Shown here: positions 34,001 through 37,000 of the stretch, piece by piece
Layout: each line of letters begins with the position of its first letter
Position numbering within the stretch: the first letter of the stretch is position 1
IMG/VR virus record: IMGVR_UViG_2897375277_000003
Span: 1 to 47,283 of that record
DNA: 47,283 nucleotides
Direction: 5' to 3' (one strand)
DNA from: a virus
Taxonomy: Duplodnaviria; Heunggongvirae; Uroviricota; Caudoviricetes
Position numbers: made by a program

Positions 34001-37000
34001 CGGATTTGCGGGACTGGTGATGTTCTTGCCGAACATGCAGCCTTTCGCTGTCAGCGACCAGAATTTTTTGATGTTGTTAATCGCGGTACGGCTGTATCGT
34101 TCGCGTTGTTCAACGATCCCCAGCTTCGCCATCTGGTGATATGCCTGATTAGCCGTAAGGCGGATACCACACTGTTTCAGCAGCGCACTCAGCGACAGCG
34201 TAGGGCGACTTGAGCCATCAGGCGCGTCAGCAGGAGCATCAATGGCATAGCGCGGTGCCAGATTCGGTAAGCCAACAGCCTCCTGGAGTTTCTGACAGGC
34301 ACCAAGCACTGAAGAGTTAGACAGGTTTAACTCCCGGCGCATAAAGTCCAGCAGAATCACTCCAGCCTGCATCTTGTCAGCAGCCTGCCCGGATAATTTT
34401 TCCGGTGCGCTGGTTACCATATCGAAAGTACGGATCACCTTCAGATGGAATGACGGACTGATCCACATTGCATAGGCATACACCAGTTCTTTGCAGACAT
34501 ACGTCCCCTGGTTATTTCCGCCACGAATAACGTTAACTGGCTCTATATTGACCGAGTTGCAAATCTGCAACTCGCTTATTAAACGTTCAGTTTGCTCATT
34601 GCGGAGCCAGAATGCAGGCTTATGCTTATCCAGAGAACCGGCAGCCCTGTGTAGATCGTTCAGGCTGTAACGCCCATAAGCATCACGACGAACTTCAATA
34701 CCATCAATGACCATCAGATTATTCATACTTCGTTTCTCCTCTTAATCAGGCGGCTGCACCCGCCGTTTTCTCGTACTTACTGATAGTGATCTCGACCTTC
34801 CCTTTCGGGATAACCGGTCCCCACTCCACCAGCATTCTTTTCACCTGTCTGTCGTCTTCCCACACACCCGCGTGGGTCAGGGCGTCAAACAGCGCCTTGT
34901 TATAGTTGTCCAGATCGCGGATCCGGTTATCCGGAGGAAACAACACGATCTCCACTGAAGCAGGTGCCGACGTTGGTTTCGGCAGACGACGTAACTGCTC
35001 AACTATTGCTGCACACGCCGCGCTCTGGAATTTGCGCCCCGCCGCGCTTATCAGGCTCTTACCTGCAAACGCCCCTTTGTTGGGGTGTCGCCAGTACGTG
35101 TTCACGCTGGGCGGGAAAGGCAGGATCAGCTTCATACTTTCAGGCCCCTCTCATGTAACCAGTGGGCTGCACGCAGCCTGGCGTTTTCCTCACCGGCAAG
35201 CAGTGCGCGGATAATCCCGACCGCCTCGCTGTCGTCGTCCTTCACCGCGGTATGAAGCGTTATCCCCCGGGCCACGCCACGCTTTATCGTGATGACGCCT
35301 TTTTTCTCCAGTGCGCGAAGATGCTCCACCGCTGCATTCACTGAACGGTATCCCAGCATGGTTGCCACCTCCTGATTGGTTGGCGGAAAGCCACGCTCTT
35401 TCTGGTAAGAAATCAGCATATCCAGCACCTGCTGCTGGCATTGAGTTAACGTCGTCATGCCGCCATCTCCCTGACCAGTTTTTCTGCCTGCTGGCGAACC
35501 TGCGCCAGAAAGGCCTCACCACATGCCTCAAGTTCATCGCGCCCGATATAGCTGATTGCCGATCCCTTCCAGGTCTTATCGAAAACAGCAATAGCACCAG
35601 CGAAGAACGCTCCTGTCGGCACCTGCTTCTCATCCTTCGGGATAAACCAGACAGGCAGTTCAAAACCAATACGCCCGCGAATAAAAGCAATATGGTCTGC
35701 ATCTTCCGGCCACCACACTTCGCTGGTGGCAGCTTTGATCAGGAAAACATAGCGCCCGCCCTTATCACGCATGGCACTGGCATGTTTCATGATGTAACGC
35801 ATGCCGGTGATGTATTGCCCCTCATGCTGACTGGCGCGGCTGTATGGGGGATTACCAAAGGCAGCACCTTTAAGCTCCGCAAGACGTTCTGACCAGTCAT
35901 GCGCCAGCGCGTTGTCTTCCGCCGTGTAATACGCAGCACATTTGGTGTTATCACCGTCAGTGAACAGATCCAGAACAAACGGGCCAAACAGGGTGTTAAT
36001 TCCCCAGAAAATGTTGTCCGGCGTGCGCCACTGATCGCCCACTTCCTTCAGTTCATGGGCTGGTTTGTTCCGCAGTTCCACCAGCGCCTGGCAATATTTA
36101 TTACTCATTAAGCCCCCACGAAATTCCCTGACAGATACCACTCTTCACCCGATGCAGCGCGCTTGCTGCTTTTCCGTAAGCACCGCTCACGACGTGCCAG
36201 AAAATTGTTTCGTTCTGGCTGGGAGTGGCTTTCACGGAATGCCGCCATCCACACCGTTGCAGCACGACGGTATAAGCCCCTGGACTCCAGTTCTTCAGCC
36301 TGGCGGGTCAGGCACAAAATCACACGGGGATCGTTAGTGCCGACATAGAAATTGCGCACAGGTCTGGTTTCACGAACTGGTTGTGGTTCCGGTTCCTGCG
36401 CTCTCTCAGTCAGGCGCGGGAAATGTCTGCGTGTATCTCCTTCACAACGGTGAGCCACACGCCCACTCTGACGTAACTTGCTTGCTGACTGCAGAACGCG
36501 CTGCCGTGAGTAACCTGCAAAAGCATCCGCAATGTCTCCGGAAGTACACCCCGGATGGGCTTCAATGAATTTCTGAACGTCATTCAAAAGACTCATGATC
36601 ACCCCCTGAATCCTGCCGGGATCTGGCTGTAGTCCACGTTGTCGTAACTGGCTTTGAAGTACGGGTCCTCACGTCTGGCTGCAGATACCGCAGGAACTTC
36701 CCAGGATTCTTCGAAATGACGATCCGGACCAAAGAACGTGACAGCCTGTTTCACAAATTGTGTGCCGCTGTTACCCATCGCAGATACCCAGCCCGCATAG
36801 CGTTTCACACCTTCCAGCATGGTTTCGGGGTTTACCCCCTCATTCAAACGGGCTTTCCAGGCTTTGAAGGCTGCAGATTTTGAATTGCCACCAGCACGTT
36901 TGGGATATGCCAGCCATGCCTGCTCAAACTCCGGAGAGTATTCCGGTCGGTTTGAACGAACTCGCACAGACTCATCAGCAGATGCACCAACAGCTATTGG

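Follow-up and report, generated by a model that had tools for sequence, protein, structure and literature searches.

A LexA-type DNA-binding domain without the protease domain, encoded in the nin region of lambdoid prophages, and its possible role as a LexA surrogate

The stretch of DNA analysed here (IMG/VR virus record IMGVR_UViG_2897375277_000003, Caudoviricetes; 47,283 nucleotides, hereafter the window) encodes a protein of 108 residues, here called mini-LexA, which carries the DNA-binding domain of LexA, followed by a predicted helical hairpin tail, and has no S24 peptidase domain. We tentatively regard mini-LexA as an accessory transcription factor of the phage with LexA ancestry, in which a private hairpin replaces the S24 protease and dimerisation domain. 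A preliminary description of the gene had presented its product as an uncleavable mimic of LexA. The observation behind that proposal was confirmed and its interpretation partly supported; judged from the sequence, an uncleavable mimic is plausible and makes a reasonable hypothesis. The sequence feature itself is already known, since it is publicly annotated as a LexA-family protein in thousands of genomes. The hairpin tail, the selection acting on the gene and its prevalence, its cassette polymorphism, its independence from the SOS boxes of the phage, the variability of one of its contact residues across clades and a sister clade linked to dinI or recA are new here.

DNA-binding domain and tail of mini-LexA

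The winged helix of mini-LexA was recovered by sequence and by structure comparison, in agreement with the alignment to the LexA N-terminus reported in the preliminary description. The Pfam profile PF01726 (LexA_DNA_bind) matched residues 1-65 over all 65 profile positions (E=2.9e-19; 69 bits, with a gathering cutoff of 23.7 bits). The best sequence matches in PDB were E. coli LexA entries, of the DNA-binding domain and of the full-length protein (1lea, 3jso), with E values of about 1e-15, and BLASTP against E. coli LexA gave 43% identity over residues 1-90. An AlphaFold2 model was built from a 20-sequence family alignment (mean predicted local distance difference test score, pLDDT, of 83.9). 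In this model, the winged helix-turn-helix (HTH) comprises helices 6-22, 28-35 and 40-52 and strands 56-58 and 66-68. When the model was compared with PDB by Foldseek, the top 12 matches were all LexA, including the LexA-operator complex 3JSO, with a root-mean-square deviation (rmsd) of about 1.0 A and 50-51% identity over 67-68 residues. Winged-helix repressors of the BlaI/MecI family and MepR ranked after them; these repressors are dimers through their C-terminal helices.

The residues of E. coli LexA named as DNA contacts in PMC3091678 are Ser39, Asn41, Ala42, Glu44 and Glu45. At the five positions so named, the aligned residues of mini-LexA are S, N, A, V and E, which means that four of the five are kept. 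Besides Glu44, Pro40 of LexA is also replaced by V. In the wing, R64, G65 and I66 show no variation. Because the top folds are all LexA and four of the five contacts are kept, the similarity is judged, from alignment and model, to be specific to LexA, recognition helix included. It thus goes beyond the generic winged helix that the preliminary description had set as the alternative to be decided by alignment.

The second element of that description, the lack of an S24 domain and hence of autocleavage, was also borne out. No Pfam match to PF00717 was found in mini-LexA, whose chain stops at residue 108, and the NCBIfam lexA profile TIGR00498 aligned over positions 1-91 of 203 only, its 70.5 bits falling below the cutoff of 110.95. 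E. coli LexA (1LEA, 3JSO) thus resembles mini-LexA in the N-terminal winged HTH, with about 50% identity in the structural core and the shared contacts S39, N41, A42 and E45, but it also has the S24 domain, the Ser119/Lys156 dyad and a functional cleavage loop, all three of which are absent from mini-LexA. In addition, host lexA is a chromosomal and autoregulated gene, whereas mini-LexA belongs to a phage early operon and has no SOS box of its own. As protease/dimerisation domain, working cleavage site and autoregulation are all absent, mini-LexA is set outside the LexA family proper. In polypeptide content, its residues 1-88 are nearly the same as the post-cleavage fragment of LexA (residues 1-84); that fragment, however, is short-lived, while mini-LexA runs on into a second helix and ends in ...RGLKV.

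The hairpin tail, which did not figure in the preliminary description, was confidently predicted by AlphaFold2 (helices 75-88 and 93-103). It stands where LexA has its C-terminal domain and is rich in hydrophobic residues (16 of 34). Dimerisation of LexA requires the C-terminal domain; lacking it, mini-LexA would have to obtain dimerisation from the tail, and the model points to the hairpin as a candidate element for oligomerisation. The first tail helix aligns with the LexA linker and the region of the Ala84-Gly85 cleavage site (LLAGEE versus VAAGEP). Its AG motif is modelled as the end of a helix, G89 is N in Citrobacter and Salmonella variants, and the motif is gone in other clades. The LLAGEE segment is probably what is left of a lexA ancestor cut short immediately after its cleavage site. 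A retained LexA cleavage loop, or a substrate for cleavage in trans, was considered and rejected, given the helical prediction and the lack of conservation of AG. Where an extended-loop Ala-Gly autocleavage site was looked for in mini-LexA, the segment was predicted to be helical, its AG was variable and no protease accompanied it.

Conservation, distribution and position in the operon

Among the sampled related loci, 71 full-length ungapped copies of the gene were found. They fall into 64 distinct alleles at the nucleotide level, between which 61 synonymous and 30 replacement changes were counted. The resulting ratio of replacement to synonymous polymorphism (pN/pS) of 0.16 indicates purifying selection. 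No replacement polymorphism fell on residues 34-47 in these 64 alleles, and a premature stop, at codon 107, was present in only one of them. When non-redundant family members were aligned, conservation was highest at the GxPPT turn, recognition helix and wing and moderate in the tail helices, and the hinge was variable. Homologs at 40-52% identity still keep the architecture of winged HTH, hinge and hairpin, tail included. Those with a named source all come from Enterobacterales (Cronobacter, Kosakonia, Enterobacter, Cedecea, Klebsiella, Salmonella and Citrobacter), hosts that presumably use the E. coli-type LexA box.

The gene was detected, at a nucleotide identity of at least 95%, in 2233 of 5426 complete E. 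coli genomes (about 41%), with up to four copies per genome. It is also carried by 61 GenBank phage records, including Stx2a and Stx2c Shiga toxin (Stx) phages, SfII, SfIV, SfV (orf42), cdtI and mEp460; the proteins of SfV, SfII, mEp460 and the Stx phages are 96-99% identical to mini-LexA and are encoded in the same synteny. PHROG 362 ("transcriptional repressor") matched the protein with E=1.6e-59 over positions 1-106 of its 106. By sequence, mini-LexA is placed in this annotated, PF01726-only family of enterobacterial lambdoid phages, the "LexA family transcriptional regulator" of NCBI, and no difference sets it apart from the family. Purifying selection, conserved architecture and prevalence together show that mini-LexA is a functional gene.

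The RefSeq label is "LexA family transcriptional regulator/protein", and GenBank labels vary, with "LexA DNA binding domain protein", "SOS-response repressor and protease LexA" and "RecA-mediated autopeptidases" among them. Judged from the sequence, the last two are wrong, because mini-LexA has no protease domain. In the literature, no experimental study of this enteric family was found, only catalogue entries; a survey of Stx phages, for instance, lists it merely as a pham with pfam01726 (PMC8136144). A component of anti-phage defence was considered and rejected: PADLOC assigned mini-LexA to no defence system and gave a marginal match only (E=3.6e-4, 18.3 bits, positions 135-188 of the CARF3--CARF model).

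As previously described, the gene lies in the nin region between a Dam-like methyltransferase gene (PF05869) and rusA (PF05866), all on the minus strand. The gene order is of the lambdoid nin type, with genes for a replication-initiator-like protein, a PerC/YfdN-like protein, Dam, mini-LexA, RusA, KilA-N, DUF968 and Q, and cro, a cII-like gene and replication genes are found upstream on the same strand. Through overlapping stop and start codons (Table 1), mini-LexA is translationally coupled to both neighbours within this early-right (nin) operon. No sigma-70-like promoter or terminator-like site was seen next to the gene on its strand. With no promoter-like site beside it, with overlaps to both neighbours and with cro, the cII-like gene and replication genes upstream, mini-LexA is probably a delayed-early gene, expressed upon induction or infection and silent in lysogens. 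No SOS box adjoins it, the nearest operator-grade boxes being 4.4 kb upstream and 3.6 kb downstream, and any SOS box within 3 kb upstream was present in only 4 of 71 and 6 of 77 loci of the window clade. From these box positions, no sign of autoregulation through an SOS box at its own promoter was found.

Proposed role and alternative explanations

The best-supported reading takes mini-LexA as a damage-proof surrogate of LexA acting at the lytic stage, a role that we consider possible and put forward with reserve; it draws on the fold, on the contact residues and purifying selection, on the lack of a protease and on the operon position. Its synthesis would be confined to the time after prophage induction or infection, and the hairpin tail would permit its oligomerisation. 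With S39, N41, A42 and E45 in place, the protein of the window clade would recognise CTGT-type, SOS-box-like half-sites; binding to SOS boxes as a dimer would draw on the four contacts kept and on a putative dimerisation through the tail. Because there is no S24 domain, RecA*-stimulated inactivation is impossible, and mini-LexA would return to the SOS operators after cleavage of host LexA. Host genes under SOS control would thereby be damped or reset during lytic growth, as would SOS-box genes of the phage itself in those mosaics that have them. We infer the timing of expression, the oligomerisation, the DNA target and the physiological effect from the features listed above. The ...VAA C-terminus of the cleaved LexA N-terminal fragment was reportedly described by Neher and colleagues in 2003 as a ClpX signal; the C-terminus of mini-LexA differs from it, and the protein is probably free of this degron. 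Even the free N-terminal domain of LexA keeps some SOS-box binding and repression, and its removal by ClpXP is needed for full SOS induction (PMC10584840).

A scan of the window for CTGT-N8-ACAG, as suggested in the preliminary description, returned 5 sites against 0.61 expected. Scored with a heterology index derived from 18 E. coli operators, two of the five resemble genuine operators, one in a cI-like repressor gene and one in a methyltransferase gene (Table 1), and they are not genetically coupled to mini-LexA. A coupling had been suggested by the phages in GenBank, in which this cI allele or this methyltransferase 5' end always occurs together with mini-LexA; the suggestion was rejected after comparison with Citrobacter phage phiNP and with a control set of 80 IMG/VR loci that share the neighbouring DUF968 gene, 71 with mini-LexA and seven without. 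At the three gene-negative junctions retrieved from these seven, the stop of dam and the ATG of rusA overlap with no gene in between, so that the loci differ by one clean cassette, from ATGA to ATGA.

Family-wide variation was followed by querying IMG/VR with three distant mini-LexA homologs, as a query with the family alignment had returned only near-identical copies. The homologs of one sister clade, P0137, have 130-135 residues with an N-terminal extension and are about 42% identical to the window protein. A near-consensus SOS box lies within 3 kb upstream in 25 of 34 P0137 loci, and in 21 of the 34 a gene for DinI (PF06183, E=5e-21) or RecA (PF00154, E=3e-130) comes directly after the box on the same strand. 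The closely spaced string (L299-L332; for example L305 8255-11128 and L324 8536-11654) reads box, dinI or recA, orf79, mini-LexA, orf67, DUF968 and a Q-like gene. Neither dinI nor recA was found upstream of mini-LexA in the window clade and the other two clades (0 of 284 loci). In all four clades mini-LexA lies a short distance upstream of DUF968-Q. Guilt by association in the P0137 string ties the mini-LexA family to SOS modulation, an argument of limited weight, and an SOS-induced operon that encodes its own uncleavable LexA would fit negative feedback. As side observations, the products of orf79 (79 residues) and orf67 (67 residues) had no Pfam match and both genes are absent from the window, and the Q-like gene may be downstream of a LexA-controlled promoter.

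Several observations weigh against the surrogate reading. In phage phiNP, which has no mini-LexA homolog, the methyltransferase box is identical and the cI gene has an internal box at the corresponding position; two of the seven gene-negative loci (L070 and L072) keep the cI box; many of the 71 gene-positive DUF968 loci have no SOS box within 10 kb; and across about 150 related loci, mini-LexA and SOS boxes assort independently. Since phiNP, L070 and L072 keep their boxes without mini-LexA, the boxes are taken as parts of the cI and methyltransferase modules, and sites for host LexA are their simplest explanation, although mini-LexA could bind there as well. Contact position 45 varies between clades (E, A, D or L), the window clade keeping E45, and position 44, V in the window protein, is never acidic in the family. 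The variation at position 45 would be unexpected if every member targeted an invariant host SOS box, and it argues for a DNA specificity that is not uniform across the family. P0137 loci in which E45 of the recognition helix is replaced by L have the SOS box in 17 of 17 cases. For this reason, the box of that clade is best explained as a host-LexA operator of a dinI/recA moron, and its linkage to dinI was down-weighted as proof of mini-LexA specificity. The tail helices do not exceed shuffled sequence in hydrophobic moment, and a clean amphipathic dimerisation helix was rejected on this account. Finally, the sole characterised truncated LexA of a phage, gp6 of Bacillus phage GIL01, has evolved a different site and activates transcription (PMC6182141).

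This gp6 resembles mini-LexA in being a phage-encoded LexA DNA-binding domain without the cleavage domain, expressed from an early operon. Its recognition helix is altered, with K38 critical, and it binds the palindrome GaCACAnnTGTGaC at position -43.5 of the late promoter P3, which it activates (PMC6182141). It differs in size (66 residues, the winged helix alone), whereas mini-LexA has a tail and the contact residues of LexA, and GIL01 is a tectivirus of a Gram-positive host, unlike the window phage. BLASTP gave no alignment between mini-LexA and gp6. Compared by eye, SHKTAHRYL of gp6 is the counterpart of SPNAAEEHL in LexA and of SVNAAVEHL in mini-LexA, and the gp6-type helix with K38 is absent here. 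A gp6-type site, searched in the window with the pattern GNCACANNTGTGNC, had 0 matches. Both a gp6-type operator in the window and a direct homology with gp6 were thus rejected, and the sequences indicate that the two proteins are of independent origin.

The precedent of gp6 nevertheless gives form to a different explanation, namely that mini-LexA is a phage-specific regulator in which the LexA fold was recruited while its specificity, its half-site spacing or both drifted. Such a protein would control phage promoters instead of the SOS regulon, and could be a repressor or an activator, for example timing KilA-N, DUF968 and Q or the late genes. We consider this somewhat unlikely. The uncoupling of mini-LexA from the phage SOS boxes, the change of E44 to V together with the variability of position 45, the new tail, which probably sets a dimer geometry unlike that of LexA, and the conserved location just upstream of DUF968-Q all speak for it. 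The window clade, however, keeps S39, N41, A42 and E45 under purifying selection, and no candidate operator emerged: the gp6-type palindrome is absent from the window, and among CTGT/ACAG pairs at spacings 0-20 in inverted, everted or direct orientation nothing convincing was found in the window beyond the N8 inverted class. CTGT and ACAG are themselves in excess there (478 versus about 347 expected under a first-order Markov model, about 1.4x, possibly caused by codon usage), which inflates the count of every half-site pair; once this was counted, no other class was convincing and an alternative half-site geometry for mini-LexA was rejected. Moreover, gene-negative phages with otherwise identical modules exist, which implies that no essential phage promoter depends on mini-LexA.

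An action at the protein level appears improbable. In this case mini-LexA would modulate the SOS response or serve as a decoy by binding RecA*, host LexA, ClpX or a phage repressor through its tail or the vestigial segment that resembles a cleavage site. In the sister clade, mini-LexA shares one gene string with DinI or RecA, whose effect on the RecA filament is exerted at the protein level, the first tail helix aligns with the LexA cleavage-site region as noted above, and gp7 of GIL01 provides a precedent of a small phage protein acting by binding LexA. The strongest constraint, on the other hand, is on the recognition helix and wing and not on the tail, the AG motif is helical in the model and varies among relatives, and no S24 surface is left for dimer contacts of the LexA type. 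A decaying remnant of a captured lexA gene, functionless today, is essentially excluded by selection and conservation. The gene is dispensable, as its precise gene-negative variants indicate, and one allele has the late premature stop, but the low pN/pS, the 71 intact copies, the architecture conserved across genera down to 40-50% identity, the presence in 41% of complete E. coli genomes and the translational coupling on both sides are all at odds with decay.

If the surrogate does bind SOS operators, many E. coli strains, with enterohaemorrhagic E. coli (EHEC) and Shigella lysogens among them, harbour an uncleavable LexA that lies latent until it is switched on at induction. The decay of the SOS response after antibiotics or ultraviolet light would then be altered in lysogens, with possible effects on the competition of prophages that have LexA-controlled antirepressors and on Stx and colicin expression, and phages would have re-used the LexA DNA-binding domain a second, independent time beside GIL01 gp6. 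In an extended form, which we think unlikely, a RecA-proof and hairpin-dimerised surrogate re-represses the SOS regulon as an off-switch imposed by the phage, and the sister clade with DinI or RecA is a LexA-controlled SOS-reset operon; mutagenesis, filamentation, colicin release, induction of rival prophages and Shiga-toxin output after DNA damage would all be shaped by it. Should mini-LexA instead have an operator of its own, it would be an unstudied nin-region regulator of the medically important Stx phages.

Neighbouring genes and further observations on SOS boxes

The features discussed above are listed in Table 1.

Table 1. Coordinates of mini-LexA, its segments, the adjacent genes and the two operator-grade SOS boxes in the window
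Feature	Position	Strand	Remarks
mini-LexA open reading frame (ORF)	35132..35458	minus	108 residues plus stop, ATG start; LexA-type winged HTH, hinge, two-helix tail, no S24
LexA DNA-binding winged HTH, residues 1-68	35255..35458	minus	Pfam 1-65/65; AlphaFold2 model; LexA rmsd 1.0 A; translation checked
Recognition helix VNAAVEHLRALEK, residues 40-52	35303..35341	minus	With S39 holds the LexA contacts S39, N41, A42, E45; E44 -> V
Hinge, residues 69-74	35237..35254	minus	Variable, low confidence: pLDDT <50 at residues 71-74; highest column entropy of the family
Helical hairpin tail, residues 75-108 (helices 75-88, 93-103)	35135..35236	minus	Conserved; candidate oligomerisation element
Dam-type N6-adenine methyltransferase, upstream of mini-LexA	35455..36141	minus	PF05869, 4.7e-45; stop overlaps mini-LexA ATG (ATGA)
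RusA Holliday-junction resolvase, downstream of mini-LexA	34746..35135	minus	PF05866, 1.3e-14; ATG overlaps mini-LexA stop (ATGA)
Near-consensus SOS box TACTGTATGTAAAAACAGTA	39894..39913		Inside cI-like repressor gene, linker between HTH and S24 domains
SOS box TACTGTAAAAATAAACAGTG (minus strand)	31531..31550		Codons 3-9 of DPPY methyltransferase downstream of Q/tR'

The codon frame of the box inside the cI-like ORF (39685..40377, plus strand) is unchanged in two other alleles, one 96% identical (TACTGTATATAAAAACAGTA) and one the diverged cI of phiNP (L005 35267, TACTGTATACAAATCCAGTG), although the linker residues that flank the box differ. The retention of box and frame beside differing linker residues suggests that the box is under selection at the DNA level. 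Just 3' of the box are in-frame starts, a GTG preceded by GAGGA and then an ATG; an SOS-controlled internal promoter that yields a cI fragment with the C-terminal domain only is conceivable.

The methyltransferase gene (30506..31558, minus strand) has a DPPY motif and lies between Q/tR' and the lysis genes, with the operator-grade box overlapping its 5' end. Methyltransferase homologs in phages of E. coli, Klebsiella (L003 32126) and Citrobacter (L005 27271) keep the CTG-N10-CAG core of this box, and so do loci of other mini-LexA clades; this implies a phage methylase with a DPPY motif that is probably regulated by LexA. Between this gene and a tR'-like terminator (about 32030-32060) is a small ORF (31710-31936, minus strand; MLTRREKDMLKQQDMTETAAAVLHFLPADKWVTPRMMTRTTGVSEARCQLILTQLVLAGLAKDNGG...) whose product reads as winged-helix or MarR-like and which is annotated only as hypothetical in related phages.

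A third type of SOS box, TACTGTATTTATGAACAGT[A/G], was seen in SfIV (L002, 32639-32658) and, at about 9067, in four other loci (L016, L053, L054 and L057). The KilA-N gene some 100 nt downstream of this box is an alternative allele, roughly 67% identical to that of the window and located just downstream of mini-LexA/rusA; the box may mark a LexA-controlled, antirepressor-like KilA-N gene. The window's own KilA-N allele has no box of this type.

In the deep protein search, some matches (P0133, P0134, P0148, P0151, P0152 and others) contained two tandem LexA_DNA_bind stretches in one chain, an arrangement that could be a covalent "dimer" answer to the loss of the LexA C-terminal domain.

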